Source: an uncultured virus (IMG/VR IMGVR_UViG_3300023240_000015) (lineage: Duplodnaviria > Heunggongvirae > Uroviricota > Caudoviricetes). Taken from it: a stretch of DNA of 20,000 bases. Location: the IMG/VR virus record IMGVR_UViG_3300023240_000015; one strand, written 5' to 3'. Below are positions 2,037-15,958 of this stretch, one piece after another. Position numbers and translations under genes: made by a program. A model generated the notes under the pieces. It saw only the letters and a program-made list of their open reading frames with translations, ran no database searches and was not told where the DNA came from. Positions within the stretch are counted from its first letter, which is position 1, and each line of letters begins with the position of its first letter.

Positions 2037-2183
2037 ATGTCTGATAATAGAAAACATTCCGCTGGAAAGGGTGATTATCCTAGAAAAGTCAACCAAACCA
2101 AATATGGTAAGAATCATGATGAAATTTCATGGCCAAGTAAAAAGAAGGTTGACAAATCAATAAAAACGAAATATGATCGGTGA
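2037..2183 (+). CDS. Small basic phage protein (48 aa)
   Basis: MSDNRKHSAGKGDYPRKVNQTKYGKNHDEISWPSKKK...; the GKGD.PR...Y..N.D.I.W pattern resembles small phage proteins; below the ORF-track cutoff. Confidence 0.6.
   Translation: MSDNRKHSAGKGDYPRKVNQTKYGKNHDEISWPSKKKVDKSIKTKYDR
2149..2177 (+). promoter_or_regulatory. Sigma70-type promoter
   Basis: TTGACA-17 nt-TATGAT; favours ATG 2185 as the downstream start. Confidence 0.6.
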
Positions 2184-2184
2184 T

Positions 2185-2856
2185 ATGTTTAATAAATTTA
2201 CATTTAACCACAACAAAGACGTAAAAACATTCTTTGTGTCTGACACCCATTTTTGCCATGATCGAGATTTTATTTTAGGAAAACGAGGATTCTCCAACAT
2301 ATCTGAGCACGATATTGCGATAAAAAATCGATGGAATGATATCGTATCACCACAAGATAACGTGATACATTTGGGGGATTTTTTGGTTGGGGCCGGAAAT
2401 GATGCCTTTAAAAGAGGACAGGAAATTCTATTTTCTCTGAACGGACACATCCATTTTTTATGGGGAAATCATAATAGTTATGTCAAAGAAATATATCGAA
2501 TCTCCCTGAAAGAAAAAATTGGTGAATGTGATCTTACTACCGAAATGTATCCCATTACCTATCAAGACAAGATAACGTTTTATGGTAATAATCTTCTGGC
2601 TAAAATTAAAACCGAAAAAAACTCCCAATATATATTTTGTTCGCATTTTGCTCATCGCATATGGATAGATTCTCACAAAGGTTCTGTGTGGCATCTCAGT
2701 GGACACAGCCACGGTGTCGATGTCGAAAGTCAACCAGAATATCTCAACTCTTCTCGGTTAGATGTAGGTATCGAAAATTTTGGCGGTCCTGTGTCATTTG
2801 ATGATATCAAAGTAATAATGGACAAAAAAATGGATAAAAAAATAGATCATCATTGA
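2185..2856 (+). CDS. Calcineurin-like metallophosphoesterase
   Basis: Motifs SDTH, HLGD, GNHN, SH and GHSH. The ORF track starts at 2173, which lies inside the -10 box. Confidence 0.9.
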   Translation: MFNKFTFNHNKDVKTFFVSDTHFCHDRDFILGKRGFSNISEHDIAIKNRWNDIVSPQDNVIHLGDFLVGAGNDAFKRGQEILFSLNGHIHFLWGNHNSYVKEIYRISLKEKIGECDLTTEMYPITYQDKITFYGNNLLAKIKTEKNSQYIFCSHFAHRIWIDSHKGSVWHLSGHSHGVDVESQPEYLNSSRLDVGIENFGGPVSFDDIKVIMDKKMDKKIDHH

Positions 2857-2866
2857 TTATTAATAA

Positions 2867-3139
2867 ATGAAATTTATTATCTCGATTTTATGTGCATTTA
2901 TCGTTATGGGATGTTCGACTCCTAAATCGACATCTCGATTTTATGGTGATACTGATTACCAACAGAAATCATCGAAGACTCTTTATACTAGGATGGGAAC
3001 CGAATATCGCCTACAAATATATGAATTTAAATCTAAAAAAAATTCGGTGTTTGTGGGAGGATCGGTCGAAACAGGTTATGATATCTATCAACGTATGATG
3101 AAAATGAACGGAACGGTTAATGTTGGAATGGAATTTTAA
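2867..3139 (+). CDS. Putative lipoprotein
   Basis: MK + hydrophobic stretch + lipobox-like VMGC. Confidence 0.6.
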   Translation: MKFIISILCAFIVMGCSTPKSTSRFYGDTDYQQKSSKTLYTRMGTEYRLQIYEFKSKKNSVFVGGSVETGYDIYQRMMKMNGTVNVGMEF

Positions 3140-3140
3140 A

Positions 3141-3341
3141 ATGAAAACTATAAATAAATTATTAAACTTTTTTGGATATGCATTGATACCATATTCCGAA
3201 ATTGAATCAATGTATCGAGATGGTGAAATTTATGGGAATATCCATCCAGCAGAAAACGAAAGACTTTCTGGATATTTTAACGGTCTGGGAGATTATGCTT
3301 CTAAGAAATCTATGATATTAGATGAAAAATATTATCAATAA
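3141..3341 (+). CDS. Hypothetical protein
   Basis: ATG directly after the previous stop; MKTINKLLNFFGY... Confidence 0.55.
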   Translation: MKTINKLLNFFGYALIPYSEIESMYRDGEIYGNIHPAENERLSGYFNGLGDYASKKSMILDEKYYQ

Positions 3342-3377
3342 CCTTGACATATTTTTAAAATTATGAATAATTCAAAC

Positions 3378-3626
3378 ATGAAAAACCGCGAAACCTTATG
3401 GGTAATTTATCTGGAGAAAAACCCGAAGTTCATTCAACCAGATGCCCAAATTACCTTTACCCAAAAGGGTTTGAGACAGTTCTTCTAACGAACATTCGAC
3501 TATGCCTATAAAGCTGGTGTTGAATCTGCAATTGAAGACCCATCACCCCAATCATCTAAAAAGGATTATGATGATCTTTCGGGTGATAATTTTTTTAATC
3601 ATTTGTTCAAACGATATAAAAAATAA
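3378..3626 (+). pseudogene. Hypothetical gene interrupted by one in-frame TAA at 3486-3488
   Basis: MKNRETLW...GLRQFF*RTFDYAYKAG...KRYKK*; own TTGACA at 3344. Confidence 0.55.
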
Positions 3627-3739
3627 ATTGACATTTATCAAAAGATCTGAAAAACTTCAAACATGTTCACACTTCCACACAAATATCAACACCAATAAAA
3701 TAAGTTGACATAACCTATAAAATCTGATAATTTATCAAA

Positions 3740-4171
3740 ATGAAAACAATTAGAACCAGCACATTCGAAACAAATAGTTCATCGAGCCATTCTCTCACAA
3801 TTGGGACGAATATCGAAATGCCAAAGATAGATTATAATGGAGAACCTTTTGTAATCGAAAGTGGTGAATATGGTTGGGGATATAAAAGTTTTACCGATAT
3901 TTATAGCAAAATTTGTTACGTTGCTGTTGATGCAATGGAAACCGGAAACGAAAATCTTAAAAATTGGTTAGTCGAGATTCTTAAAGATGCATATCATTGT
4001 GGTGATGTAGTATTCGACTTCACCGTTGGTTGCGAATCTAATAAAAACTATACCTACATCGACCACCAATCGGTGGGAACCGCTCTCGAAGCATTTCAGA
4101 GCAAATCCGATCTAGAAAGATTTTTGTTTTCACCTACTAGCGAACTAATTATTAATAACGATAATCACTAA
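3740..4171 (+). CDS. Conserved phage hypothetical protein (IRxxxFETNSSSSHS N-terminus)
   Basis: N-terminal IRTSTFETNSSSSHSL and C-terminal YIDHQS, a pattern familiar from large phages. Confidence 0.75.
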   Translation: MKTIRTSTFETNSSSSHSLTIGTNIEMPKIDYNGEPFVIESGEYGWGYKSFTDIYSKICYVAVDAMETGNENLKNWLVEILKDAYHCGDVVFDFTVGCESNKNYTYIDHQSVGTALEAFQSKSDLERFLFSPTSELIINNDNH

Positions 4172-4257
4172 AACCAAACCATCCTAGAATAAGGTAATCT
4201 AGGATGATGATAAAGAAATTATTGACGACGATACGACACAATGATAAGTAATCGTTA

Positions 4258-4581
4258 ATGAACACAGATGATCTAGGAACAATTTACGAGTCCTCCGTTT
4301 TTAACGAGGGACTCGTTTCTAATGTTGGTAAGATCCTTAAAACCGGATTGGAACAGGGGTCTAACATTTTTGATATTGTTTCTAATAATCTTCAAGAGTT
4401 TATTTCGGTAATTGCTGTTGTGTCGGCAATGACCACGGCAATGAAATTTCAAACGATGTATCAAAACCGACCGGATATTTTGAAAAGTCATATTCATTAT
4501 GTTGAAGCAGCTAAAGATGAAGTGGCTCAATTTTTGGTAGATCATCCAGATATTGTTCAGATGTTGATTAAAAAGAGTTGA
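4258..4581 (+). CDS. Hypothetical protein (probable late gene)
   Basis: 107-aa ORF; TAAGTA at 4245-4250. Confidence 0.65.
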   Translation: MNTDDLGTIYESSVFNEGLVSNVGKILKTGLEQGSNIFDIVSNNLQEFISVIAVVSAMTTAMKFQTMYQNRPDILKSHIHYVEAAKDEVAQFLVDHPDIVQMLIKKS

Positions 4582-4626
4582 AAAATGATACACTCAAGTA
4601 TAAGTAAATAGAGAAGGACATATAAG

Positions 4627-4716
4627 ATGAAGTTAAGATCAAACACAACAATGCATAAACCGCAACCGATTATAGGTCGTTTAGGTTATTGTGTCGCTGA
4701 ATGGCTCTTTATGTAA
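4627..4716 (+). CDS. Putative leader peptide, 29 aa (MKLRSNTTMHKPQPIIGRLGYCVAEWLFM)
   Basis: AAGGA Shine-Dalgarno at 4614-4618; 19 different amino acids; stop immediately precedes alternative hairpins. Confidence 0.7.
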   Translation: MKLRSNTTMHKPQPIIGRLGYCVAEWLFM

Positions 4717-4718
4717 CA

Positions 4719-4757
4719 TCCCTGATTATAATCTAATAGTAGACGAATAATCGGGGA
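4719..4757 (+). promoter_or_regulatory. Putative antiterminator hairpin
   Basis: TCCCTGATTA (4719-4728) pairs with TAATCGGGGA (4748-4757), overlapping the terminator 5' arm. Confidence 0.65.
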
Positions 4758-4778
4758 ACCCAAAAGGTTCCCTTTTTT
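4754..4778 (+). terminator. Intrinsic terminator
   Basis: GGGAACC-CAAAA-GGTTCCC followed by TTTTTT. Confidence 0.85.
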
Positions 4779-4911
4779 GTTTTAGGAACCAAAAACTGAA
4801 AACAAAAAGAAAAAGTAAAAAAAATTTGACAATCTCTTAAAAATATGAGACAGTAAAGGGGTTGAAAGAAAAACAACAAAAACAATTTTTAGAACATTTT
4901 GAGAAGACTTA

Positions 4912-5160
4912 GTTAGCCTAGTTCACTTCTAGTGGCGGTAAGAACGGCGAAAAAACAATAATAAAGAAAATCGGACCTTGTGCCTCGAAAGCATATTGAA
5001 AAATGGTTTCCGATTCGTTCCAATAGGAATAGCCCCCAATTGACAGGAGATCTAAAAGATCTTGTGTGGTAATAATCTATGGGTAGAAGCATCAACTTCT
5101 ACTATAGAATAACCATCGTTCTAAATGTCTTGAAAAACTGATGAACATTAAGATGGTTAT
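4912..5160 (+). ncRNA. Putative structured RNA(s) of unknown family
   Basis: Non-coding; stems GAACG/CGTTC, AATCGGA/TCCGATT, AGATCT/AGATCT, GTAGAAG/CTTCTAC and TAACCATC/GATGGTTA. Confidence 0.4.
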
Positions 5161-5180
5161 TATATTAGCAGACTATGTAA

Positions 5181-5765
5181 ATGTCTGCACATTTTATGAA
5201 AAATCCATATCCAATTCACTATACTAGGGATGAGTATAGAAACGAATATCTAGTATCTCCCGATTGGAAGAAGAAGAGGCTTATTGTATTGGAAAGGGAT
5301 GAAGTATGTCGAATTTGTGATGTGACCGTTTCACATGATGTTCACCACATAACATATGACCGTATTCCGTTCGAGAATTTGGAGACCGATTTAATCGGAA
5401 TCTGTCGCCCTTGTCATAATAAGATTCATAGCTGGCATCTCTTAACTAAGTGCCGTAGCGTGAAAAAGATACGTTCACTTATTTCAATGATGAAGACTAA
5501 ATTCGAGATAGATGATTTATTCATCTCAAAAATGAATGGTTTACCGATAAATTCGAAGAAAAAGATGTCGAGTCTCTTTAAGAAGAATGTGCATTCCTTC
5601 GAATCTCTTCGTGGGGTTATGGTAACATTTAGAACTTACTTGGACATAAGAGACCTAATCAAAACAGCCCGTAAGAAGTTTAAATCAAAGAAGTTGGGGT
5701 TTAAGATCAATAAACCACAAAATTCTTTCTTAGGTCATGGTGGATGGAGTAGAAAAATTCTATAA
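5181..5765 (+). CDS. HNH endonuclease
   Basis: YLVSPDWKKKR..VLERD..CRIC...VHHITY....E...DL...CRPCHNKIH. Confidence 0.85.
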   Translation: MSAHFMKNPYPIHYTRDEYRNEYLVSPDWKKKRLIVLERDEVCRICDVTVSHDVHHITYDRIPFENLETDLIGICRPCHNKIHSWHLLTKCRSVKKIRSLISMMKTKFEIDDLFISKMNGLPINSKKKMSSLFKKNVHSFESLRGVMVTFRTYLDIRDLIKTARKKFKSKKLGFKINKPQNSFLGHGGWSRKIL

Positions 5766-5772
5766 TTAAAAT

Positions 5773-5845
5773 ATCCCTGCCAGCGGATTCTGGACAGATG
5801 CCTTCTAAGCAACTAGGGAAGGTTCGACTCCTTCTAGGGATACCA
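5773..5845 (+). tRNA. tRNA-Arg(TCT)
   Basis: Acceptor ATCCCTG/TAGGGAT, loop CTTCTAA, GGTTCGACTCC, CCA. Confidence 0.8.
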
Positions 5846-5861
5846 AATGTTAAATATCGTT

Positions 5862-5894
5862 TCGGCCCGATGATCTGGTAAACCAGAAGCCGAC
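5862..5894 (+). repeat. Hairpin repeat, copy 1
   Basis: ATCTGGTAAACCAGAAGCCGAC (5873-5894) is identical to 6108-6129. Confidence 0.85.
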
Positions 5895-5900
5895 ATTTTT

Positions 5901-5937
5901 GCCGTGGTCGCATAGTGGCCGATTGCACCTGTTTTTT
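5901..5937 (+). pseudogene. tRNA 5' half only (Thr-like acceptor; identity uncertain)
   Basis: GCCGTGG-TC-GCATAGTGGCCGATTGC-A-CCTGT then a T run; no matching 3' half found. Confidence 0.6.
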
Positions 5938-5938
5938 T

Positions 5939-6075
5939 ACCTACAGAGTTCGTCGATTAGTATGTAGGTGGCTGGAATAAACATCGACTCTGACGGAGAA
6001 TCTGATAGGTCAGAAATAGGTCTGACAATCCGTTGAAGCAACAACAAAAATCGCGATCAAAATGTTGCTAGGACT
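5939..6075 (+). ncRNA. Structured RNA with a pseudoknot and a group I intron-like P4-P6 segment
   Basis: ACCTACA/TGTAGGT crossed by GTCGAT/ATCGAC; GACGGA-GAA...GACAA-TCCGTT; AGCAACA/TGTTGCT. Confidence 0.45.
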
Positions 6076-6096
6076 TGTAAATTTGAAACTTGCGAA

Positions 6097-6129
6097 CGGC
6101 TCGCGTAATCTGGTAAACCAGAAGCCGAC
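6097..6129 (+). repeat. Hairpin repeat, copy 2
   Basis: CGGCT...TCTGG-TAAA-CCAGA-AGCCG. Confidence 0.85.
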
Positions 6130-6136
6130 TTTTTAC

Positions 6137-6210
6137 GCTTCCTTAGTTCACGCTGGCTAGAATTCCTCACTTGTAATGAGGGGAAGTCGGTTCGACACCG
6201 ACAGGAAGCT
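6137..6210 (+). tRNA. tRNA-Thr(TGT)
   Basis: GCTTCCT/AGGAAGC, CCTCA-CTTGTAA-TGAGG; no encoded CCA. Confidence 0.9.
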
Positions 6211-6917
6211 CATGATCGATTGCGTTTGCCACTCTTGTTAAGTCTCCTAAAGTTTGGAGTCAAACTATGACAATTTGGACAAATTAGTTCAAGGTTATCC
6301 TCAGAACAATTCAAAGCATCACCGTCAATATGGTTGACCTCCAAAGGAATAGATTTGCTAGTTGGGTTAATTTGACTCCAACCACATTTACAACATTTGT
6401 TTTCATATTTATCAAAAAGATATCTTCTTACGAATACTTTAATTCGGATAGTCTTTCCCGTCCACCCATTGATGGACCCATCTTTCCAATTACTAATCAA
6501 CTCTTGTTGTTTATATTTTCTTGTGCAAATCTGCGAACAAAATTTTCTTGGATTTTCCCTCTCGATGAAAGAAAATGAGTCTTTGCAATTCTCACAATTT
6601 TTTGTTTTAGTGTTAGTAATTTTTCTTAAATGGTTGTTGAAAGTTGCCGAACAAGACCTTGAACAGAAATTATTATCACCAATTTGGCTATTTTGGATAA
6701 TCCGACTTTCTCCGCAATTTTTACAAATAATAGACTTGGTGAGAGTCTTCGCTCGTCGTGAACACTCTACGGAACAAAAATCGACCCTTTTTGTCCCTTT
6801 CAATCCCCTTCGTGCTAGTGATATACTAACGAAAAAAGGTTTCTTACAATTTAAGCATTCGCATGGAACTTTTGAGCCGCGAACAACATCTGAAATATTT
6901 GGTACGAGCATCTTCAT
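6210..6917 (-). CDS. HNH homing endonuclease with CxxC...FCS zinc-ribbon repeats
   Basis: C-terminal LEVNHIDGDALNCSEDNLELICPNCHS. Start reassigned to ATG 6917 because TAAGTA lies 5 nt upstream and the longer ORF overlaps a tRNA. Confidence 0.85.
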   Translation of the reverse strand: MKMLVPNISDVVRGSKVPCECLNCKKPFFVSISLARRGLKGTKRVDFCSVECSRRAKTLTKSIICKNCGESRIIQNSQIGDNNFCSRSCSATFNNHLRKITNTKTKNCENCKDSFSFIERENPRKFCSQICTRKYKQQELISNWKDGSINGWTGKTIRIKVFVRRYLFDKYENKCCKCGWSQINPTSKSIPLEVNHIDGDALNCSEDNLELICPNCHSLTPNFRRLNKSGKRNRS

Positions 6918-6960
6918 ACTAATACTTACCCCGATTCCCCGTCTTGGCTCCATACAATTT

Positions 6961-7039
6961 GTCGCGGGAGTGAAACGGAATAATAATCCAAGTCTCATAA
7001 GCTTTGGGATAACAGGTTCGACTCCTGTCTGCGCCACCA
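6961..7039 (+). tRNA. tRNA with CAT anticodon (Met or Ile2)
   Basis: Loop CTCATAA, ACAGG-TTCGACT-CCTGT, CCA; one acceptor mismatch. Confidence 0.75.
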
Positions 7040-7065
7040 TTGATAATGATCGTTTACATTTATAT

Positions 7066-7161
7066 ATGGATAAGGCTAAGGTAGCCGGAAGGACTCCAAA
7101 TCCTTTGTGTCAAATCGGAAGAAATGACTACGATAAGATTCGATTTCTTATATCCATGCCA
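7066..7161 (+). tRNA. tRNA-Trp(CCA) with long variable region
   Basis: ATGGATA/TATCCAT, AAGGA-CTCCAAA-TCCTT, about 27-nt variable region, CCA. Confidence 0.75.
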
Positions 7162-7178
7162 TTTCAAAAACTTTATAT

Positions 7179-7265
7179 GTGGTTGCGCAGAAGTCGGAGA
7201 GTCTGACCTGCCTTTCAAGCAGTGTCCCTTATGGGAAGCGGGTTCGATTCCCGTCAGCCATGCCA
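7179..7265 (+). tRNA. tRNA-Glu(TTC) with long variable arm
   Basis: GTGGTTG/CAGCCAT, CTGC-CTTTCAA-GCAG, TCCC-TTAT-GGGA arm, CCA. Confidence 0.75.
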
Positions 7266-7349
7266 TTTCGATACTTTGCCTTAACAATGTGTAGTTATTA
7301 GTTTCTAGAAACTATCCGTATGTGTGCATACGGGTTGAATGTTTTTATG

Positions 7350-7425
7350 GTGGTATTAGTGTAGTGGTTTCGCACTTCTCTTTGTGAAAGAGACAGGATG
7401 ATTTCGAATATCATATACCACACCA
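7350..7425 (+). tRNA. tRNA-His(GTG)
   Basis: GTGGTAT/ATACCAC, TCTCT-TTGTGAA-AGAGA, CCA; G at position -1 (7349); discriminator A. Confidence 0.85.
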
Positions 7426-7670
7426 TTTTTCATTAATCTTATCTTGGATAATTTGGAAATATTTTAATGACGACAATTCAGTGAATTTCATCTGTTCGGT
7501 AGTGTTTATAACACACAATTCTATACCATCCTCGAAACATTTTTTGATTTTCGCGTATCATTTCTTTGAATATTTAACAATTTAGATTCCCCGTAGATGG
7601 GAGAGTAATGAAATATACCATTGATCTCAAAAGCCAAGTCTAATTTTTGGATGTAGATATCTAACTCTAT
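7421..7670 (-). pseudogene. Remnant of a Vsr/DUF559-like endonuclease C-terminus, frameshifted
   Basis: IELDIYIQKLDLAFEINGIFHYSPIYG...NDTRK / IKKCFEDGIELCVI; no start codon. Confidence 0.7.
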
Positions 7671-7693
7671 CGCTTAGAAAATTTTAGTATTAT

Positions 7694-7764
7694 TCCCTGT
7701 AGGTGTATCGGTTGCACATCTGGTTTTGGCCCAGACAGGCGTGGTTCGATTCCACGACGGGGAG
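7694..7764 (+). tRNA. tRNA-Gln(TTG)
   Basis: TCCCTGT/ACGGGGA, TCTGG-TTTTGGC-CCAGA. Confidence 0.8.
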
Positions 7765-7778
7765 CATTTTAGATTTTT

Positions 7779-7863
7779 GGGTGATTAAACTGTTAAGGAG
7801 GCAGTCGGGATTGTAAACCCCGCTCGTAATGATCGCAGGATTCGATTTCCTGATCACCCACCA
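7779..7863 (+). tRNA. tRNA-Tyr(GTA)
   Basis: GGGTGAT/ATCACCC, loop TTGTAAA, long variable arm, CCA. Confidence 0.85.
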
Positions 7864-7867
7864 TTTC

Positions 7868-7946
7868 GCGTTGGTATCCGCTTCGGCTTCGAACCGATTG
7901 AAACGGTAAAGGACGCATGGGATTTCGAAATTCCCCCGACGCACCA
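7868..7946 (+). tRNA. Non-canonical tRNA-like RNA, TCG (Arg) anticodon, no conventional D arm
   Basis: GCGTTGG/CCGACGC, TCGG-CTTCGAA-CCGA, T loop TTCGAAA, CCA; homologous to 13478-13556. Confidence 0.7.
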
Positions 7947-8052
7947 TTTGAATAATTTATCTAAACGATAAAGCCTGCACGTTTGAAGGTTCATGCGACC
8001 AATGATTACTACCATGTAGAGTCTCGCGAAACTGATCGGATGTATTTTCAAC

Positions 8053-8123
8053 CTCTGTATAATTAAATGGTATAATAAGCCTTTGATAAAGGCTCTTCGT
8101 TGGTTCGATTCCAGCTATAGAGA
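8053..8123 (+). tRNA. tRNA-Ile(GAT)
   Basis: CTCTGTA/TATAGAG, AGCCT-TTGATAA-AGGCT. Confidence 0.8.
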
Positions 8124-8136
8124 CATAATTTTCTAA

Positions 8137-8214
8137 CCTCCGTTAGCTCACGATTGGCAGAGCAAGCTCTTTATAAGAGCGAGGTAGCTGGATCGACGCC
8201 AGCACGGAGGACCA
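8137..8214 (+). tRNA. tRNA-Ile(TAT)
   Basis: CCTCCGT/ACGGAGG, GCTC-TTTATAA-GAGC, CCA. Confidence 0.8.
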
Positions 8215-8423
8215 AACATTTTTTGGTGCGTAGGCGAACACAACTCTTCGCCCACCAAAACATTTTTAACGAGACGGTGCTGCAAGGTTCGATCAGATCA
8301 TGATCTGTGAAAGACCCCAAGGAACGCACAATTAAAAAGTCTAATATAGTTTCACGACCTCATGAGGAAGTGTTACGACAATAAACACAGAAGGTTCGAA
8401 TCCCACTGGATGCACCAATTTAT

Positions 8424-8500
8424 TGCGGTCAGGTGGTCTGGTTGACCATTCAAGTTTCATAAGCTTGAGAGCTAGGTTCGATTCCTAGGACTCGCTACCA
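8424..8500 (+). tRNA. tRNA-Met(CAT), unpaired 1:72
   Basis: CAAGT-TTCATAA-GCTTG, CTAGG-TTCGATT-CCTAG, CCA; bulged acceptor stem. Confidence 0.7.
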
Positions 8501-8508
8501 TTTGTTGA

Positions 8509-8751
8509 GTAGTCGTAGAAGTAAAAATGATATGGAAGCATGGTGAAACGTTAAATAACTACACGAGGTTTTTCGAAGAAAAAAACACCGCCTTGCGATA
8601 TTTTTGCGAGAAAAGAGGCTACAAAGCGTTGATCTTAAATGTGTCTGATAATCCAGAATTTAACAAATTTTATAGAAAATATTTGAAACATTTTAATCGC
8701 AGGGTAGAGAAGGTGGTAACTCGGGGGTCTCATTCAGTAATCATGATGTGA
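8509..8751 (+). pseudogene. Probable C-terminal remnant of a PD-(D/E)XK endonuclease
   Basis: In-frame VVVEVK precedes ORF 8527-8751 (...EEKNTALRYFCEKRGYKALIL); the frame runs into a tRNA. Confidence 0.5.
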
Positions 8752-8799
8752 TTACTGAATAAGCCCTTTCATCGGATTCGAACGCCGCCCCCGCTACCA
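8698..8799 (+). tRNA. Initiator-type tRNA-Met(CAT) with a 27-nt palindromic insertion in the anticodon loop
   Basis: CGCAGGG start with C1 mismatch; GGGGT-CTCAT[insert]AA-GCCCT; irregular T arm; CCA. Confidence 0.65.
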
Positions 8800-8886
8800 T
8801 TTTTGCTACTATTTAAATTTTAATTTCAGAATAGCTACAAAACGATTCTGTTGACATCTAGGAAAGACTAGTGCCAATTTAAAAAT

Positions 8887-8961
8887 GGGAGATTAAGTTA
8901 TGCGGTAAACTTCGGATTTCATAAGTCCAGATAACGGATTCAGACGCCGTATCTCCTACCA
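8887..8961 (+). tRNA. tRNA with CAT anticodon (Met or Ile2), irregular T loop
   Basis: GGGAGAT/ATCTCCT, GGAT-TTCATAA-GTCC, CCA. Confidence 0.65.
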
Positions 8962-8971
8962 TACATTTTAA

Positions 8972-9051
8972 CGGAAATGGGACTGCTTGGCGTGGTCGCG
9001 TGATTTGGGATCACGATATTCAGCGGGATTCGATGGCCCGATTTCCGACCA
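8972..9051 (+). tRNA. tRNA-Pro(TGG)
   Basis: CGGAAAT/ATTTCCG, CGTGA-TTTGGGA-TCACG, CCA. Confidence 0.85.
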
Positions 9052-9073
9052 TATGACTTTGGGATTAGTTCGA

Positions 9074-9225
9074 TTCCACCTGTAAAGAACGTTCGTGAAA
9101 TCCTTTTTGTTTCGTAAACTTTCTGCGCGGTATATGATAGTTGACTAAGTGCAACAACCCCGCACCTTTTCTGAGTTATGCAGTTGCGATAAAACGCTAA
9201 ATAGATTGCAAACTCTATGGTGGAA
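9074..9225 (+). ncRNA. Putative structured RNA
   Basis: Closing TTCCACC/GGTGGAA; internal GAGTT..TGCAGTT/GATTGCA.AACTC. Confidence 0.4.
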
Positions 9226-9269
9226 GCTATGGTGAAAGCTGGCAACTTGCTTTGAAATGTTGTATTTAT

Positions 9270-9354
9270 GCGAGCGTGGCGAAATCGGCAGACGCGCCAG
9301 ATTTAGGATCTGGTTCCGCAAGGAGTGTGGGTTCAAGTCCCTCCGTTCGCACCA
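9270..9354 (+). tRNA. tRNA-Leu(TAG)
   Basis: Canonical class II cloverleaf, CCAGA-TTTAGGA-TCTGG, CCA. Confidence 0.95.
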
Positions 9355-9571
9355 AGTCTGGATGGGAATTGGAAACAAGACGGACTTCATAAATGTCTAC
9401 CTCACCGAATCGTTATTATTTGTGATAATCAAATGACGCAACCCTGTTTGCGAAAGAGGATAAACCTTAAACAGTTCAATTTATCATACTCCCCGCGCCT
9501 CTAAATGTATGCGTAATTCGGGGAGTCTTTTGAGAAATTTGATCACAGAGTTGTCTCTTAACCATTTATAT

Positions 9572-9651
9572 GTCTCGCTCGCCTAAATAGCTTAATGGCG
9601 TTTCCCTTCCAAGGAAAAATAATGAGGGCTGCTAATCCTCGCGGGATACCA
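9572..9651 (+). tRNA. tRNA-Gly(TCC), degenerate T loop
   Basis: GTCTCGC/GCGGGAT, TTTCC-CTTCCAA-GGAAA, CCA. Confidence 0.7.
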
Positions 9652-9654
9652 ATT

Positions 9655-9730
9655 TTGACTGATAGAGTCCTCCCCATCTAAGGGATTTGCCGGAAGGTGG
9701 TGGCGATTCAAAGAAAACTGGTTCAGTCGA
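9655..9730 (+). ncRNA. Small structured RNA
   Basis: Closing TTGACTGA/TCAGTCGA; internal GCC-GGAA-GGT. Confidence 0.4.
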
Positions 9731-9741
9731 TAATTTAAAAA

Positions 9742-9819
9742 CGCTAAGTGGTGTAGTTGGAACTCGCACGACATTCTGAAAAAATGAGGGAATCTGTTCG
9801 AATCAGATCTTAGCGGCCA
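9742..9819 (+). tRNA. tRNA-Phe(GAA)
   Basis: CGCTAAG/CTTAGCG, CATT-CTGAAAA-AATG, CCA. Confidence 0.75.
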
Positions 9820-9855
9820 TTATTCCGCTCGAATTAGAGCATGGAAAAATTTTAT

Positions 9856-9929
9856 GGGGCATAGCTGTGGTCAGCGGAGAATTCTTGCAAAATTCTTGTC
9901 TATGATTTCGATTATCATATGCTCCACCA
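9856..9929 (+). tRNA. tRNA-Ala(TGC)
   Basis: GGGGCAT/ATGCTCC with G3:U70, GAATT-CTTGCAA-AATTC, CCA; short D arm. Confidence 0.8.
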
Positions 9930-9934
9930 TTTAA

Positions 9935-10009
9935 GCGGGTGTCGTATAACGGCTATTATGGGGCATTGCCTATGCCCAGATGGGAGATCGTCCCTCCCCA
10001 CCCGCTCCA
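9935..10009 (+). tRNA. tRNA-Gly(GCC)
   Basis: GCGGGTG start, GGGCA-TTGCCTA-TGCCC, U73, CCA; atypical T loop. Confidence 0.8.
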
Positions 10010-10014
10010 ATTTT

Positions 10015-10148
10015 AAACATGAGGCGGAAATGTAAATGACGCAGCATTATCGAAAGAACTCTGGAACATCTACTAGTGATGCGAAATCCATTATTCTTAG
10101 AGATGAATCCTCCAAATGCAGGAGTGGGTCCAAATCCCACCATGTTTA
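10015..10148 (+). ncRNA. tRNA-shaped RNA with expanded anticodon and variable regions
   Basis: AAACATG/CATGTTT, GCG/CGC D stem, GCATTA/TGATGC, GTGGG-TCCAAAT-CCCAC. Confidence 0.55.
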
Positions 10149-10158
10149 AAGAATTTTA

Positions 10159-10234
10159 GTCCTCTGAGGGAGCAGGTGAACCCCAACCTCTGCAAAAGGT
10201 TTGTTGCTCGGTTCGATACCGAGAGATGACTCCA
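10159..10234 (+). tRNA. tRNA-Cys(GCA)
   Basis: AACCT-CTGCAAA-AGGTT, U73, CCA. Confidence 0.85.
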
Positions 10235-10276
10235 CTTTTTAATTGACAATATCTGAAATTTTGATATCTTCACCCT

Positions 10277-10504
10277 ATGAAGAAAATTATTGCAAACTTG
10301 GTGAGTTTTATATTTGAAATGATCGACCTTATATTTTGGTGTCTGTTTTTGTTTATGTTGTTGTTTATTGTTGCGGTAGCTTTTTACACCTTTGGGTGGC
10401 AATTATTGGCCGCTATCATTCTTATCCCGATCATCTTTTTTGGTTTTTATTTTATCTATGATGGTATTCGGTATATTTACGAATGGTCACAAAAAAACAA
10501 ATAA
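10277..10504 (+). CDS. Small membrane protein (two TM helices)
   Basis: Very hydrophobic 75-aa ORF with its own TTGACA at 10243. Confidence 0.7.
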   Translation: MKKIIANLVSFIFEMIDLIFWCLFLFMLLFIVAVAFYTFGWQLLAAIILIPIIFFGFYFIYDGIRYIYEWSQKNK

Positions 10505-10510
10505 TTTTAT

Positions 10511-10585
10511 GGTCTGCTCGCCAAGTGGGAAGGCCGAAGGTTTACATCCTTCCATGACTCCGTTCGATTCGGAGGCAGATCACCA
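10511..10585 (+). tRNA. tRNA-Val(TAC)
   Basis: GGTCTGC/GCAGATC, GAAGG-TTTACAT-CCTTC, CCA. Confidence 0.9.
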
Positions 10586-10590
10586 ATTTA

Positions 10591-10663
10591 GCGTATGGGA
10601 GATGAAATGTATATCAGGCAAAGTCCTCTCCAAGTGTAGGTTCAAGTCCTGCTACGCCCACCA
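10591..10663 (+). pseudogene. tRNA-like RNA lacking an anticodon arm
   Basis: GCGTA/TACGC, GTAGG-TTCAAGT-CCTGC, CCA. Confidence 0.5.
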
Positions 10664-10760
10664 TTTTTACGTAAAAGAAAATTCGATGGCCTTTCCTTAT
10701 AGGGCAACAAGATGTGAAACATTATCGAACGGTAAAAGTCCGTATATAGGGACAATTTAT

Positions 10761-10837
10761 GGAATCGTAGAAAGCTGGAAAATTCACTTCCCTGTCAAGG
10801 AAGCTACGTGTGGGTTCGAGTCCCATCGGTTCCGCCA
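10761..10837 (+). tRNA. tRNA-Asp(GTC)
   Basis: GGAATCG/CGGTTCC, CTTCC-CTGTCAA-GGAAG, G73, CCA. Confidence 0.9.
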
Positions 10838-10922
10838 TTTACGTAAAAGAAAACTGATGCACTTGTTGAGACGGGAGTGTGTGAAGATAGGGGTAAAAGT
10901 CCCAACTTGATCTCCAATTTCT

Positions 10923-10996
10923 GGAATCATAGCAAGCTGGAAAATGCGCCTCCCTGTCACGGAGATGATTTGAGGGTTCGAGTCCCTTTGGTTCCG
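10923..10996 (+). tRNA. tRNA-Asp(GTC), second copy
   Basis: GGAATCA/TGGTTCC, loop CTGTCAC; ends GCC without the final A. Confidence 0.9.
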
Positions 10997-10999
10997 CCT

Positions 11000-11866
11000 T
11001 TAAATACGCGAAGATTCTGTTGATATTCTTCTCAAAATTTCTTCTTTATGTTTCAAATGATCCGAATCAATAAGAATGATTTTCTGATTATCATCTTTCA
11101 CAGATTGGATTTTATTAGGCAACCAATCCTCGATATAAAATTTTCCTTTAATTTCCACCCACAACTTCAAATCTTCGAGATAAAAATCTGGATAATATTT
11201 CTTATTTTTCCCTCGGTAAATGTAATGAAAGAATGTAGTTGTGTTTTTAGACCATTTGATATTATTATCATCCAAAAGTTCGGCAAATTGCGCTTCGGAA
11301 CCCGAATCCATTTTGATACCATTATAAAAACAACGATGTAGTCGGGTGGAATTTTCTCTATATCCACCGAGATTAGGATTTTTATATGAACACGGTAAAC
11401 TACAAAATTTTCTTTGACTGCTTGACGGTGAGCAGTAAAATTCTTTATCACATATCAGACATGTTTTATAAGTTCCTGTTTTAATATGTATAGGTTGTGT
11501 GTAATTCTTTTTCGCATAAGCCGACATTTTATTCCTCAATTCAGGGGTCCATATAGATTCCCTTCGTGGAATATTAAATTTCGCAGCACACGAAGATGTG
11601 CAAAAATGATTAGAGGATTTCTTAAAATCTTTTAATGGTTTACATACATCTTTATCACATTGGGCACATTTGCATAAAATTCGATTACCAGAGTGTATTT
11701 CTAAACATCCCCGAGAACAGAAAAGCATATGATTTTTAGATTTCAAAATTCTCCTTTTATCCAATACAATTCGTTTTTTGGAAAAGAATTGTTTTTCGCA
11801 TCTTTCACATTTTAACTCAACGAGATCATGACTTTTTAATTTTGCTATATCGGATATAATATTCAT
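11000..11866 (-). CDS. PD-(D/E)XK homing-type endonuclease with zinc-ribbon repeats
   Basis: DSGSE...YYPDFYL....WVEIKG; three CxxC...FC(S/T)xxC repeats; start reassigned to ATG 11866 (TAAGTA 5 nt upstream). Confidence 0.85.
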   Translation of the reverse strand: MNIISDIAKLKSHDLVELKCERCEKQFFSKKRIVLDKRRILKSKNHMLFCSRGCLEIHSGNRILCKCAQCDKDVCKPLKDFKKSSNHFCTSSCAAKFNIPRRESIWTPELRNKMSAYAKKNYTQPIHIKTGTYKTCLICDKEFYCSPSSSQRKFCSLPCSYKNPNLGGYRENSTRLHRCFYNGIKMDSGSEAQFAELLDDNNIKWSKNTTTFFHYIYRGKNKKYYPDFYLEDLKLWVEIKGKFYIEDWLPNKIQSVKDDNQKIILIDSDHLKHKEEILRRISTESSRI

Positions 11867-11927
11867 ATAACTACTTACACTAAACGGGGTAGAAATCCAC
11901 CTAAAGTGCAAGTTTATTTTCAGAATT

Positions 11928-11981
11928 TAGGTGCATACAGCAATCAAAAAATTGTATATTAAACACAAAAAACTGCATCTA
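11928..11981 (+). ncRNA. CAGCAATCAA hairpin motif, copy 1
   Basis: TAGGTGCA-TACAGCAATCAA...AAAAAAC-TGCATCTA; homologous to 19753 and 19827. Confidence 0.7.
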
Positions 11982-11987
11982 GTTTTT

Positions 11988-12076
11988 ACTGCGATACCCT
12001 AACTGGTAAGGGACGAAGCTGTTAACTTCGCGTATTCCTCGAAAGAGGTATCTAGGTTCGAATCCTAGTTGCAGTG
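11988..12076 (+). tRNA. tRNA-Asn(GTT) with long variable arm
   Basis: ACTGCGA/TTGCAGT, CGAAG-CTGTTAA-CTTCG, CCTC-GAAA-GAGG arm. Confidence 0.8.
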
Positions 12077-12105
12077 CATCAGGTAGGGAACACCTACCAT
12101 TAAAT

Positions 12106-12244
12106 TTGAGTGTTAAGTGAGAATGATGGCCAACACACTTGTTCAGAAATGTCTAAGAGTTGGAGATTGCCGAGAGGTCTCCGCGCCTGTGGCTCCAATT
12201 TGTCCCTTGGGGATGGATATACAGAACGGTCTGTAGATGCTCAA
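12106..12244 (+). ncRNA. Putative structured RNA
   Basis: Closing TTGAGTGTT/GATGCTCAA; TTGGAG/CTCCAA, GGAGA/TCTCC, TACAGA/TCTGTA, TCCC/GGGA. Confidence 0.5.
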
Positions 12245-12255
12245 TTAATTTTAAA

Positions 12256-12329
12256 TCCCTTGATAGTTTAACATAATAGAACGAAGTCCGTGGGGACTTT
12301 GGCGCGGAGAATCACCGTGATGGGGACCA
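12256..12329 (+). pseudogene. Degenerate tRNA-like RNA
   Basis: AAGTC-CGTGGG-GACTT arm with a 6-nt loop; ends ACCA; poor T loop. Confidence 0.4.
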
Positions 12330-12341
12330 TTTTTATTAAAT

Positions 12342-12414
12342 TTCTTCGTAGCTCAATGCCCCAGAGCCTTGTGATAGTATACAAGAGATGTAGGTTCTAA
12401 CCCTATCGAAGAAT
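12342..12414 (+). pseudogene. tRNA-like RNA with an 8-nt non-canonical anticodon loop
   Basis: TTCTTCG/CGAAGAA, GCTC/GAGC, CTTGT-GATAGTAT-ACAAG, GTAGG/CCTAT. Confidence 0.55.
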
Positions 12415-12431
12415 TAATTTTGAATTTGATT

Positions 12432-12606
12432 GAGAGAACCAAAAAACTAAATACCCTGCATATAGTATATCGGGGTCTGGGTCATACCACAGTAGATCAT
12501 TGAATTGATCGAAGGATGATCCTAACCAAGCCATGTGTGAAAACAGGGCTTTGATACAGCAAGAACTAGTCGTGGAGTGTTACGCGAAAGACACCTTGGT
12601 TCTCTC
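12432..12606 (+). ncRNA. Putative structured RNA, 175 nt
   Basis: Perfect 11-bp closing stem GAGAGAACCAA/TTGGTTCTCTC with internal hairpins. Confidence 0.6.
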
Positions 12607-12652
12607 TTTCATATAATTTAAATGGGGCTTTAACCGCCCGAAAAAATTATAT

Positions 12653-12740
12653 GGATCATACTGAGGTAGGCTCCTCAAACTATTTTGAAAATAGTAGTAG
12701 CTCTAAAAGGCTAATCGTTCGATGCGATTATGATCCGCCA
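12653..12740 (+). tRNA. tRNA-Ser(TGA)
   Basis: GGATCAT/ATGATCC, ACTAT-TTTGAAA-ATAGT, long variable arm, G73, CCA. Confidence 0.8.
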
Positions 12741-12741
12741 T

Positions 12742-13003
12742 TTTTCTTGTTAGAGGTTGGCTTAGAAGCAGCAACGAATGATAAATTCTGATTGTCTATG
12801 ACAATTACCTTTAAAGAGTAGAGCGAAACGCGAGTCTCCGATATCAACGGTCCATATTTTATGGGTGTCTGTGATAACATGAGCGTGTCAAAGTTAGATA
12901 TTGACGTTCATGTTGGATTTCGTCTAACCGTGGAAGTAAAAGGATACCCCGTAAATGGTAAGGTCTGATTCTCTTTTGGCGTAATATGCACATAACAAGA
13001 AAA
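12742..13003 (+). ncRNA. RNA resembling the 23S rRNA L11-binding domain (H43/H44) with two insertions
   Basis: GAGGTTGGCTTAGAAGCAGC (12753-72), CCTTTAAAGAGT (12808-19) and GCGTAATA (12979-86) in rRNA order, closed by TTTTCTTGTTA/TAACAAGAAAA. Confidence 0.75.
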
Positions 13004-13012
13004 ATTTTTTAA

Positions 13013-13080
13013 TTCGAACTAGGGAATGGTAGTCACCCCGAATCAGGTATAGTCTTGGTTCGAGTCCAAGGTTCGCAGCA
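13013..13080 (+). pseudogene. tRNA-like RNA lacking an anticodon arm
   Basis: CGAAC/GTTCG, GGG/CCC D stem, CTTGG-TTCGAGT-CCAAG. Confidence 0.55.
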
Positions 13081-13203
13081 TACAATTTCTCTCACAAAAC
13101 GAGACAAACATTGGGGTATGGCCTAGATGGGTTAAATAAAAAGCGGTTATCGAGACCGTGATTAAAAAAGACTAGACGTTTGAGAGGGTGCATTTTTAAT
13201 TTC

Positions 13204-13277
13204 GATCCATTAGTGTAATGATAACACAAAACATTCTCAGTGTTTTATCGCGAGTTTGATTCTCGCACGGATCGCCA
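13204..13277 (+). tRNA. tRNA-Glu(CTC)
   Basis: GATCCAT/ACGGATC, AAACA-TTCTCAG-TGTTT, CCA. Confidence 0.8.
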
Positions 13278-13278
13278 A

Positions 13279-13438
13279 TTTTGCCAGCCGTATAGCAGTA
13301 CACACGCTATACGCACCTGATCATGAAATCTCCCTTTGAGAAAGGAGACCAAGGACGATTGGGCACTCGGGATCAATAAAGAGTCCAGATGAAATTCTCA
13401 CTCACCTGCTTTGCTGATATTCCCCGTAGCTGGTAAAA
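13279..13438 (+). ncRNA. Putative structured RNA
   Basis: Closing TTTTGCCAGC/GCTGGTAAAA; CGTATAGC/GCTATACG; TCTCC.CTTT/AAAGGAGA. Confidence 0.55.
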
Positions 13439-13477
13439 CTTTTTTAAATAATAAGTAGTTTCATATGGTTTAAATAT

Positions 13478-13556
13478 GCAATAGTAAACCCTCGGCTTGC
13501 GGAGCCGTAGAAAGGTTAAAGGACACATGAGATTTCGAAATTCTCCTATTGCACCA
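13478..13556 (+). tRNA. Non-canonical tRNA-like RNA, GCG (Arg) anticodon, no conventional D arm
   Basis: GCAATAG/CTATTGC, CGGC-TTGCGGA-GCCG, T loop TTCGAAA, CCA; homologous to 7868-7946. Confidence 0.7.
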
Positions 13557-13598
13557 TTTATTTGTTGACAATCCTCTAAACATGTTTATATTGGGGAG

Positions 13599-13979
13599 AT
13601 GAACATAAAACTGAATATACCGATAGAAGATGTAGAAGTTCTCGAATGGTGGTCCTTGGAGTTTATGAAACGAAAAGAAAAAATTCTTAAAAAACGGAGC
13701 ACTCCGGTTCGGGTGAGATTACTATCTAATCAACAATTTATCACCACCAAATCAAAGAAAACCATCTGGCCGAGTATCGGTGCGGCCAAGAGCGCACTTC
13801 GATTAGATTTTTCGGGTTTGGACGAATTCGTGCCTCGATGCGAGTGCCACGGTTATAATTATAGACATAAAATTACTAAAACCCACTTTCAAGATTGGAG
13901 AGAAAAGGTAGAAAGAGATGAAGCGGCATTTCAAGAATTTATTGAAAATTGGGTAGAGTTCGTCCCATGTCTGAGTTAA
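13599..13979 (+). CDS. Hypothetical protein
   Basis: 126-aa ORF; TTGACA at 13565. Confidence 0.7.
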   Translation: MNIKLNIPIEDVEVLEWWSLEFMKRKEKILKKRSTPVRVRLLSNQQFITTKSKKTIWPSIGAAKSALRLDFSGLDEFVPRCECHGYNYRHKITKTHFQDWREKVERDEAAFQEFIENWVEFVPCLS

Positions 13980-13983
13980 TATT

Positions 13984-14355
13984 ATGAATCATAGACCTAT
14001 ACAAATCATTTTACCAGAATCTCAAACCGAAATGGTCCTAAGAGACTGTCTAATGGCGTCTTATGATACTAAGGTAGATCAATTAGATTGTTCAAAATCT
14101 GTGGCACGACAAAAGACGGATAAAACCGTAGAAGAAATTTTACAAATGGGGTTGAATTATGATCACACATTGTATAGTTTTATTTATAAGGACATGTCTT
14201 TCCTTCCTCAAGAATATCCCAAAAATCATGATTATTGGGATGTCGGATTATCAACCCTAACATCCGACGTTAGTTATTATCTTTGGATTCGATTATTTGT
14301 TCAAGATGGTTGGGCCATTGCTTCTGAATATGACCTGAAAGAAAGAAAATTTTAG
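13984..14355 (+). CDS. Hypothetical protein
   Basis: 123-aa ORF tightly following the previous gene. Confidence 0.7.
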   Translation: MNHRPIQIILPESQTEMVLRDCLMASYDTKVDQLDCSKSVARQKTDKTVEEILQMGLNYDHTLYSFIYKDMSFLPQEYPKNHDYWDVGLSTLTSDVSYYLWIRLFVQDGWAIASEYDLKERKF

Positions 14356-14360
14356 AATAT

Positions 14361-14451
14361 GGGCGTGTGGTGAAGCTGGCTGAAACACCATCGACTTAAA
14401 ATCGATGACCCAAGTGGTTAAACATCGTGGGTTCGATCCCCACCACGCCCA
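14361..14451 (+). tRNA. tRNA-Leu(TAA)
   Basis: GGGCGTG/CACGCCC, ATCGA-CTTAAAA-TCGAT, long variable arm. Confidence 0.9.
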
Positions 14452-14554
14452 CCCTAGATAAAGGCATTATGTAGTGAAAAAAATGCGACAATTGATGGTT
14501 CTCAAATAGATAGTTGACATATATATAACATGTGTGGTAAAGTAAAAGTTACCA

Positions 14555-15040
14555 ATGAACATATTTCATCTATCCTCTGATCCTAAAGAAGCTGCAAAAT
14601 ATTATGTAGATCGCCATGTAGTTAAAATTATTACCGAAATAAATCAATGTTTGTCATCTGCATATCCCAAAGGCACGGCACCTTATAAATGGACTCACAC
14701 CAATCATCCAATGACAAAGTGGTGTCGGGCATCCAAATCTAACTTTAAATGGTCTATAGAGCACTGTCAGGCTCTATGTGAGGAATATACATATCGGTAC
14801 GGAAAGATCCATAAAGGTGAAGGCGTCCTTGATTGGTATCGGCAAAACGATCCACAAATTGAAAATGTTGAAATGACCGCTGTGCCAAGGTGCTTCGGCA
14901 CCTTCAAGGATTTGATCCCAGAAACTAAAAATCACATTGAAGATTATCGAAATTATTATCGAGTTGGTAAGAAGCATCTTTTTAATTGGAAAAAGCGAGA
15001 AACTCCAGAATGGATACTTGACAAATCTATAAAAGATTGA
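14555..15040 (+). CDS. Pyrimidine-dimer DNA glycosylase / endonuclease V-like protein
   Basis: MNIFHLSSDP..AA....DRHVVKII.E..Q.LS...H.NHP...W...EY..RYGK.H signature. Confidence 0.8.
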   Translation: MNIFHLSSDPKEAAKYYVDRHVVKIITEINQCLSSAYPKGTAPYKWTHTNHPMTKWCRASKSNFKWSIEHCQALCEEYTYRYGKIHKGEGVLDWYRQNDPQIENVEMTAVPRCFGTFKDLIPETKNHIEDYRNYYRVGKKHLFNWKKRETPEWILDKSIKD

Positions 15041-15070
15041 TAATGTCGAGGCATACAAACAATAAATAAT

Positions 15071-15424
15071 ATGAAAAAGGAAAAAACATTAGCCGGTTCT
15101 CGGTTGGGCGATCCAGACGAAGCTCTCAAAAAACACTGCAAAGCTGCGAACCGTTTATTTGATAATTCATTTGCCGTGGAACTGGCGGAAGAAACACGCA
15201 CCAATTACCAAAAACCTGTCGATCTAACTCTTCAAATTGGGCATGGAGATATTCATTTGCTAAAATCTCATTTTATCAAACCTCCGACCGATGAACGTGA
15301 GCGCAAATATATTAATGAGATTAAAAAATTATCAGAGGAAGAACTTTCCATATTTTTAGTTAAATTGGCAGTCCGTCAGGTCGCGGGGGAATACGCAAGA
15401 AGTTTAATTAGTCCTTCTGTATAA
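15071..15424 (+). CDS. Hypothetical protein
   Basis: 117-aa ORF; TTGACA at 15018. Confidence 0.65.
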   Translation: MKKEKTLAGSRLGDPDEALKKHCKAANRLFDNSFAVELAEETRTNYQKPVDLTLQIGHGDIHLLKSHFIKPPTDERERKYINEIKKLSEEELSIFLVKLAVRQVAGEYARSLISPSV

Positions 15425-15426
15425 TT

Positions 15427-15858: not shown

Positions 15859-15864
15859 TATTTT

Positions 15865-15953
15865 GGAACGTAGGCAGATATTGGCTTGCTGCGTAAGTTT
15901 GCTAAATTTATCCACTCGAAAGGGTGGTCAGAGTTCGATCCTCTGGCGTTCCG
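15865..15953 (+). tRNA. tRNA-Ser(GCT)
   Basis: GGAACGT/GCGTTCC, loop TTGCTAA, long variable arm. Confidence 0.85.
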
Positions 15954-15958
15954 CATAT

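Follow-up and report, generated by a model that had tools for sequence, protein, structure and literature searches.

A 29-codon reading frame, a competing hairpin and an intrinsic terminator upstream of an HNH endonuclease gene and a tRNA array in an uncultured phage: terminator-promoter junction or ribosome-tuned switch?

Introduction

The described systems closest to the locus presented here are attenuators of the trpL/hisL type, in which a short ORF has its stop codon a few nucleotides before a hairpin that competes with a terminator (PMC1183508). The phage element shares this layout and, in a folding model, also the behaviour that termination becomes favoured once a ribosome has reached the stop codon. 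Several differences should be mentioned, however. The phage element has neither a run of regulatory codons nor a conserved 1:2 pause hairpin, its hairpin contests only part of the terminator stem, it is placed at the end of a gene run instead of behind a dedicated promoter, and a promoter-like site separates it from its supposed target. A second kind of attenuator, found ahead of vmlR, msrD and mef/mel, combines a non-repetitive short ORF with a terminator/antiterminator pair and reportedly responds to stalling in general (PMC9226507, PMC10314930, PMC4335068). These leaders directly precede the gene that they control and respond to drug-bound ribosomes, whereas the genes downstream of the phage element are an HNH endonuclease gene and tRNA genes with their own promoter-like site.

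A simpler comparison is also available. In T4-like phages there are plain terminator-promoter junctions between early transcription units. The present locus is alike in having a GC-rich stem and a T run after the last gene, followed by an A-rich tract and a sigma-70-like promoter sequence, but the competition from its upstream hairpin is far stronger than at any of 79 other terminator-like sites of this phage and two relatives. Leader-peptide control of phage tRNA genes was not found described in a limited search of the open-access literature.

A first-pass annotation, made from the sequence alone, had proposed that the locus is an attenuator acting as a general sensor of the tRNA pool. In this work we follow up that proposal. 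The sequence features that it described are partly confirmed and its attenuator interpretation is partly supported, as detailed below.

The phage, its relatives and its strain variants

The window, by which we mean the whole stretch of 20,000 nucleotides that was analysed, is part of an IMG/VR record of 80,834 bases with a GC content of 36% and an estimated completeness of 38%. The source phage is a distant T4-like one. The record encodes two RNA ligase homologues, a clamp loader, a baseplate wedge protein and a major head protein (phrog_138) that shares no more than 35% identity with its counterpart in any cultured phage; relatives with head proteins 63–81% identical are common in IMG/VR. The RNA ligase homologues (phrog_562 and phrog_968) are located at L005 8126–9235 and 13661–14707 on the - strand, and two phosphoesterases are encoded in the window, at 2173–2856 and 18977–19708. 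RNA ligases and phosphoesterases are the kind of gene set that T4 employs for the repair of cleaved tRNAs.

Positions 2100–6300 of the window have no DNA similarity to five long relatives, so the locus is absent there as judged by DNA search; the tRNA genes of these relatives are dispersed in small groups. DNA searches of cultured phages in near and distant mode gave no match to the locus, scans of IMG/VR returned the same phage alone, and a transposase search of the genome contigs for host inference gave no relative. No element with a strong terminator and a comparable competing fold appeared in six relatives (two of them whole, four through their tRNA regions), with a detector that requires perfect stems and from which imperfect elements could escape.

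The copies available for covariation are either identical or 99.87% identical. L001, L112 and L113 match the window across the whole element, and L111, a metagenome contig of 113 kb, has four differences over 3,024 nt. Three of these fall within 28 nt of the small ORF, at 4646, 4661 and 4673, all of them at second codon positions and all non-synonymous (T7I, P12Q and I16T), which argues that the peptide is not under purifying selection. The binomial chance of finding at least three of four differences in 90 of 3,024 nt is about 1e-4, and the cluster could have arisen through recombination of a patch, through diversifying selection acting on a small peptide or because constraint is relaxed. The frame stays open in L111 (83% by chance) and still encodes 19 amino acids (27% by chance). 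Keeping 19 does not demonstrate selection for amino-acid diversity in this strain, as 27% of sets of three random non-synonymous changes keep at least 19. The three SNPs also alter the fold predicted within the ORF and none is compensatory, so a conserved RNA fold within the ORF was rejected; since this fold differs between the two strains, there is no conserved 1:2 pause or anti-antiterminator hairpin. The competing hairpin and the terminator carry no SNPs and have the same sequence in all copies seen.

The 26-nt terminator is found once more, identical, in the reverse complement (1501–1526) of L110, an otherwise unrelated metagenome contig of 19.8 kb. There it lies 22 nt past a long ORF and has no competing hairpin.

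Gene run and promoter-like sites

The features of the locus are collected in Table 1.

Table 1. Features around the competing hairpin and the terminator (positions in the window)
Feature	Position	Strand	Remarks
Promoter-like site TTGACA-N14-TGA-TAATTT	3705–3733	+	One of six matches to the recurrent motif; heads the upstream gene run
Upstream ORF 1, 143 aa	3740–4171	+	phrog_28997; ATG at 3740, 6 nt past the promoter-like site
Upstream ORF 2, 107 aa	4258–4581	+	ORFan; the terminator would close both ORFs
SD-like GAAGGA	4613–4618	+	8 nt ahead of the ATG; duplex energy −5.4 kcal/mol
29-codon ORF	4627–4716	+	ATG 4627, TAA 4714–4716; reads MKLRSNTTMHKPQPIIGRLGYCVAEWLFM
Competing hairpin	4719–4757	+	4719–4729/4747–4757, 11 bp including one G-U; inner 4-bp stem
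Intrinsic terminator	4753–4778	+	8-bp stem 4753–4760/4766–4773, CAAAA loop, T6
A-rich tract, then promoter-like site	4790–4854	+	TTGACA 4826–4831, N14, TGA, GACAGT 4849–4854
HNH endonuclease ORF	5181–5765	+	phrog_144, E 1.3e-10; separates the terminator from the tRNA genes
Marginal tRNA-Arg(TCT)-like gene	5772–5844	+	Relaxed ARAGORN threshold only; directly after the HNH ORF
First confident tRNA, tRNA-Thr (TGT)	6137–6211	+	ARAGORN default; 1.36 kb downstream of the terminator

The two proteins encoded upstream gave no match in tblastn searches, and the 107-aa one has a sole relative among 5.8 billion proteins, 99% identical, with none below 99%. As candidates for a dedicated promoter before the small ORF, TTGAAA-N15-TATAAG and TTGATT-N19-TACACT can be recognised; their spacing is non-standard and the promoter scan did not list them.

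Downstream, the A-rich tract covers 4790–4825 and the promoter-like site lies 53 nt from the terminator. The first-pass annotation had seen the TTGACA of this site, which is indeed present, although one position off from where it was placed (4827). It had also allowed that transcription of the tRNA cluster mainly from an independent downstream promoter would speak against a sensor, and at the sequence level a promoter-like site of a recurrent class is found at 4826–4854. The motif of this class, TTGACA-N14-TGA-N5-T, is found six times in the window, always on the + strand (at 1263, 3344, 3628, 3705, 4826 and 15018), against 0.10 expected, and none of 200 shuffles reaches six, a contrast that is inflated by the pattern having been composed after viewing its sites. 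Four of the sites (3344, 3628, 3705 and 15018) are directly ahead of genes. TTGACA by itself has 16 occurrences on the + strand of the window and 4 on its - strand, with 6.7 expected, and further such sites lie within the tRNA array, at 8851, 10243, 13565, 14514 and 15018.

The spacer of the motif often contains AAAA(G/T)AT. At 3344, 3628 and 3705 an ATG follows 5–6 nt past the −10 hexamer, and a TTGACA-N17-TATGAT site at 2149 has an in-frame ATG 7 nt further on. ATGs placed so close behind −10 hexamers suggest that early mRNAs of this phage may be leaderless or nearly so.

The competing hairpin and the terminator

The intrinsic terminator reported in the first-pass annotation is indeed found, with a T run that reaches 4778 and a computed energy of −12.9 kcal/mol, and it is the sole site of the 80.8-kb record that passes strict criteria. 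The hairpin was correctly placed at 2 nt past the stop of the small ORF, and its stem was described as one of 10 bp when it really has 11. It has a bulged shape with two stems and an energy of −16.1 kcal/mol. Both structures had been taken as mutually exclusive, which is only partly so: hairpin and terminator share 4753–4757, so that the hairpin competes for five of the eight pairs of the terminator stem rather than for the whole stem. Within 4717–4774 the state with the full hairpin has −17.1 kcal/mol versus −17.7 kcal/mol for the full terminator with a shortened hairpin, and the direct branch-migration path between these two folds has a barrier of 3.7 kcal/mol. As the full terminator can coexist with the shortened hairpin at near-equal energy and across such a barrier, the hairpin should be unable to lock the terminator out.

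The effect of translation was evaluated with a footprint folding model, in which a ribosome covers 30 nt and the readout is the probability of the hairpin's outer pairs. This probability is 0.59 in the free RNA, 0.12–0.79 with codons 2–26 in the A site and 0.00–0.05 with codons 27–30. Thus, in the folding model the position of the ribosome selects the fold, and the trp/his-type switch geometry claimed for the locus holds there, in that a ribosome at codons 27–30 removes the hairpin. The additional claim that stalling at any codon would have the same outcome does not hold in this model, since the predicted hairpin probability spans the whole range of 0.12–0.79 depending on the stall position.

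Rfam 15 gave no family match at 4600–4780, with E up to 1 or at gathering scores, and no second copy of 4590–4860 was found within the genome. There is a sub-threshold match to the Histone3 family at 4761–4815 (21.3 bits, with a cut-off of 34); GGTTCC in the 3' arm of the terminator could pair with a second GGAACC at 4785–4790, and it is this region (4766–4790) that gives rise to the match.

It is important to establish how unusual the competition is. The terminator is absent from the native minimum free energy (MFE) structure of 4717–4780, 4680–4780 and 4627–4780, and dinucleotide shuffling of the sequence upstream reproduces this loss in 5, 12 and 8 cases per 1000, respectively (0.5–1.2%). 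As a measure of competition, the energy obtained when the terminator is enforced was subtracted from that obtained when the 3' arm is blocked, for 80 natural terminator-like sites of this record and two complete relatives. At 1.5 kcal/mol, the locus ranks first among the 80. Hairpins at least as stable as −12 kcal/mol are present at 38 of the sites, and within this group the next-lowest value is 8.5 kcal/mol. In a cruder MFE test the terminator was lost at 2 of 45 sites of the two relatives, and in a weak control within the genome 6 of 18 relaxed sites lost their hairpin in the MFE structure, most of these six being poor terminators. The competing fold is thus beyond chance. An ATG ORF of 15–60 codons ending 0–12 nt before a given point is found at 4–6% of random positions. 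Chance is a difficult explanation when the competing fold, the ORF geometry, the start context of the ORF, its amino-acid count and the lack of SNPs in hairpin and terminator all coincide at a single terminator; in a scan of very many windows, some coincidences of this kind are still expected.

The small ORF and its start

The ORF at 4627–4716 is as the first-pass annotation described it: with 19 distinct amino acids it lacks Asp alone, and it uses alternative codons (AAG/AAA, TTA/CTC, AGA/CGT and ATT/ATA). With 23 distinct codons in 29, it contains no run of regulatory codons. A gene caller reported it on four JGI/IMG contigs. Under a base-composition model the probability of 19 amino acids in 29 codons is 0.0022, a post hoc statistic picked once the sequence had been viewed. 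The same caution applies to the observations that no other of the 166 ATG ORFs of 25–33 codons in the 80.8-kb record has 19 amino acids, and that only 0.11% of 29-residue windows of the phage's real proteins reach this number.

The start of the ORF had been called Shine-Dalgarno (SD) led. GAAGGA is effectively found 8 nt before the ATG, but at background frequency: an anti-SD energy of −5.4 kcal/mol is reached by 7.8% of all ATGs of the genome, by 6% of a sample of ATGs and by 3 of 72 long-ORF starts (4%). The same script yields 8% and 6% in two relatives, versus 52% in a T4 control (first 50 kb). This phage lineage does not use SD sequences at gene starts, and GAAGGA was rejected as a translation signal for being at background frequency in such a lineage. 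The lack of SD enrichment in the record and in two relatives suggests that the host, too, makes no use of SD sequences. Bacteroidetes are known not to use them (PMC7797042). By a position-weight model, the start of the small ORF falls in the 25th–39th percentile when ranked among gene starts and within the top 5–15% when ranked among all ATGs. Its context is therefore gene-like, and translation of the ORF is possible.

HNH gene, tRNA array and codon match

The element had been described as standing in front of the tRNA cluster. The first tRNA detected at default threshold begins at 6137, beyond both the promoter-like site and the HNH ORF. All 22 ARAGORN tRNAs of the record are in the window, at 6137–16050; Rfam at gathering score confirms 11 of the 22 and adds none. 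The tRNA-Arg(TCT)-like gene that follows the HNH ORF was detected neither at ARAGORN default settings nor by Rfam at E up to 1, and it may be a decayed or unusual tRNA beside an endonuclease gene.

Some other features of the array deserve mention. The ARAGORN call at 12342–12414 has a two-base anticodon, and several calls are 85–95 nt long. A direct repeat of 27 nt, 96% identical between its copies at 5873–5899 and 6108–6134, combines a T run with a small hairpin (CTGGT-AA-ACCAG). Between the end of the second copy and tRNA-Thr there are 2 nt, and the first copy is followed by a sequence resembling the 5' half of a tRNA.

It had also been claimed that most codons of the small ORF match phage anticodons. 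The phage tRNAs cover 18 of the 29 codons with strict wobble and 21 of the 29 with loose wobble, versus 65.4% and 76.2%, respectively, of the 22,925 codons of 72 long ORFs, so the small ORF is at the genome baseline and there is no enrichment. For this reason, we rejected the idea that its codons are tuned to the phage tRNAs. Eight codons (AAG, AAA, AGA, CGT, CCG twice, GAA and TGG) have no phage tRNA at default threshold; of these, AGA would be read by the marginal tRNA-Arg(TCT). The phage has two tRNA-Asp genes, yet the small ORF contains no Asp codon.

Discussion

We give about even chances to the reading that an ordinary intrinsic terminator closes a gene run before the next promoter, the small ORF being incidental or fast-evolving. 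A short early run on the + strand would start at the promoter-like site at 3705, continue through the two upstream genes and the 29-codon ORF and end at the terminator. Transcription of the HNH endonuclease gene and of the tRNA genes that come first would then start from the promoter-like site at 4826–4854. The 29-codon ORF would be a chance frame or a small fast-evolving gene, and neither its amino-acid diversity nor its stop beside the hairpin would have a sensing role. The hairpin might make the terminator somewhat leaky or give stability to the 3' end of the transcript. That termination takes place at this site is an inference, and so is the choice of active promoters. Several observations argue for this reading: the terminator is canonical, with a GC-rich stem and a T run after the last co-directional gene, and a new promoter-like site follows it; the same 26 nt stand alone after a long ORF in L110; the codon match is at baseline, the SD-like motif is at background and the hairpin should be unable to lock the terminator out; and the six relatives, two of them whole and four through their tRNA regions, have no orthologous locus or similar element, nor is the peptide conserved. 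The rare competing fold, the ORF geometry, the gene-like start, the 19 amino acids and the SNP-free hairpin and terminator speak against it.

Translation could instead tune a leaky terminator, whose read-through would add to transcription from the 4826 promoter. A ribosome finishing the small ORF would cover the 5' arm of the hairpin and leave the full terminator, and with the ribosome absent or stalled upstream the hairpin would take five of the eight pairs, with more read-through into the HNH/tRNA region as a result; what would be reported is general translation capacity and not particular tRNAs. The footprint model is in line with this, as are the rarity of the competing fold, the placement of the ORF stop, the gene-like start context and the L111 strain, whose ORF is open and whose hairpin and terminator are untouched. 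Moreover, the leaders of vmlR (PMC9226507) and msrD (PMC10314930) reportedly sense stalling in general without codon runs. However, a dedicated attenuator is disfavoured by the near-equal energies and the low barrier between the two states, by the lack of a conserved pause or anti-antiterminator hairpin that would synchronise ribosome and polymerase, by its location where a gene run ends, by the promoter-like site directly downstream, which limits what read-through can contribute, and by the absence of a similar element in six relatives, the locus being a single one with near-identical copies only. We think that this translation-tuned mechanism is possible, although clearly less probable than an ordinary terminator. 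It could also be that a protein or RNase, of phage or host origin, binds or cleaves the hairpin at 4719–4757 independently of the ORF, and that this sets the efficiency of the terminator or the stability of the upstream mRNA 3' end. The hairpin is statistically unusual, unchanged in all copies and of a bulged two-stem shape, all of which would suit a factor-dependent element, but it has no Rfam match, no second copy in the genome and no known partner, and the placement of the ORF stop would be left unexplained; we consider it unlikely. Both explanations are retained because the competing fold (about 1–4%) and the ORF-stop geometry (about 5%) are jointly improbable.

The proposal that we started from goes further, as it takes the ORF for a pan-amino-acid leader through which the phage would detect that any host tRNA is depleted or cleaved and would respond by turning on its own tRNA cluster. 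The presence of 19 of the 20 amino acids in 29 codons, a number kept in L111, is in its favour, and the two RNA ligase homologues and the phosphoesterases would fit a conflict over tRNA integrity. But 19 amino acids survive three random non-synonymous changes in 27% of cases, codon coverage is at baseline with eight codons lacking a phage tRNA at default threshold, and Asp is absent despite the two tRNA-Asp genes. Elf and Ehrenberg (PMC1183508) show that the sensitivity of an attenuator drops as the fraction of regulatory codons falls, and with one codon per amino acid the sensitivity to any single tRNA would be low. Besides, the hairpin probability depends on the stall position, so codons are not equivalent, and the 1.36 kb up to the first confident tRNA contain a promoter-like site and the HNH gene, other TTGACA sites being found inside the array. 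As the general tRNA-pool sensor relies on one post hoc statistic and fails the codon-match, distance and promoter tests, we regard it as the least credible of the explanations discussed, with a very slim chance of being right.

Significance

Codon-anticodon agreement and the label of an SD-led start need the genome's own baseline before they count as evidence. If the locus is an ordinary terminator-promoter junction, its description is a matter of annotation. It is highly improbable, in our opinion, that the phage monitors translation by opening the only strong terminator of its 80-kb fragment when ribosomes fail to finish a 29-codon ORF that samples 19 amino acids; if it did, transcription into the HNH/tRNA region would rise whenever nearly any host tRNA is damaged or depleted, in a phage that also carries RNA ligases of the tRNA-repair type. 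If, instead, the terminator were simply tuned by ribosomes, this would be a case of ribosome-mediated attenuation in a phage, with a non-repetitive leader and in a lineage without SD use.
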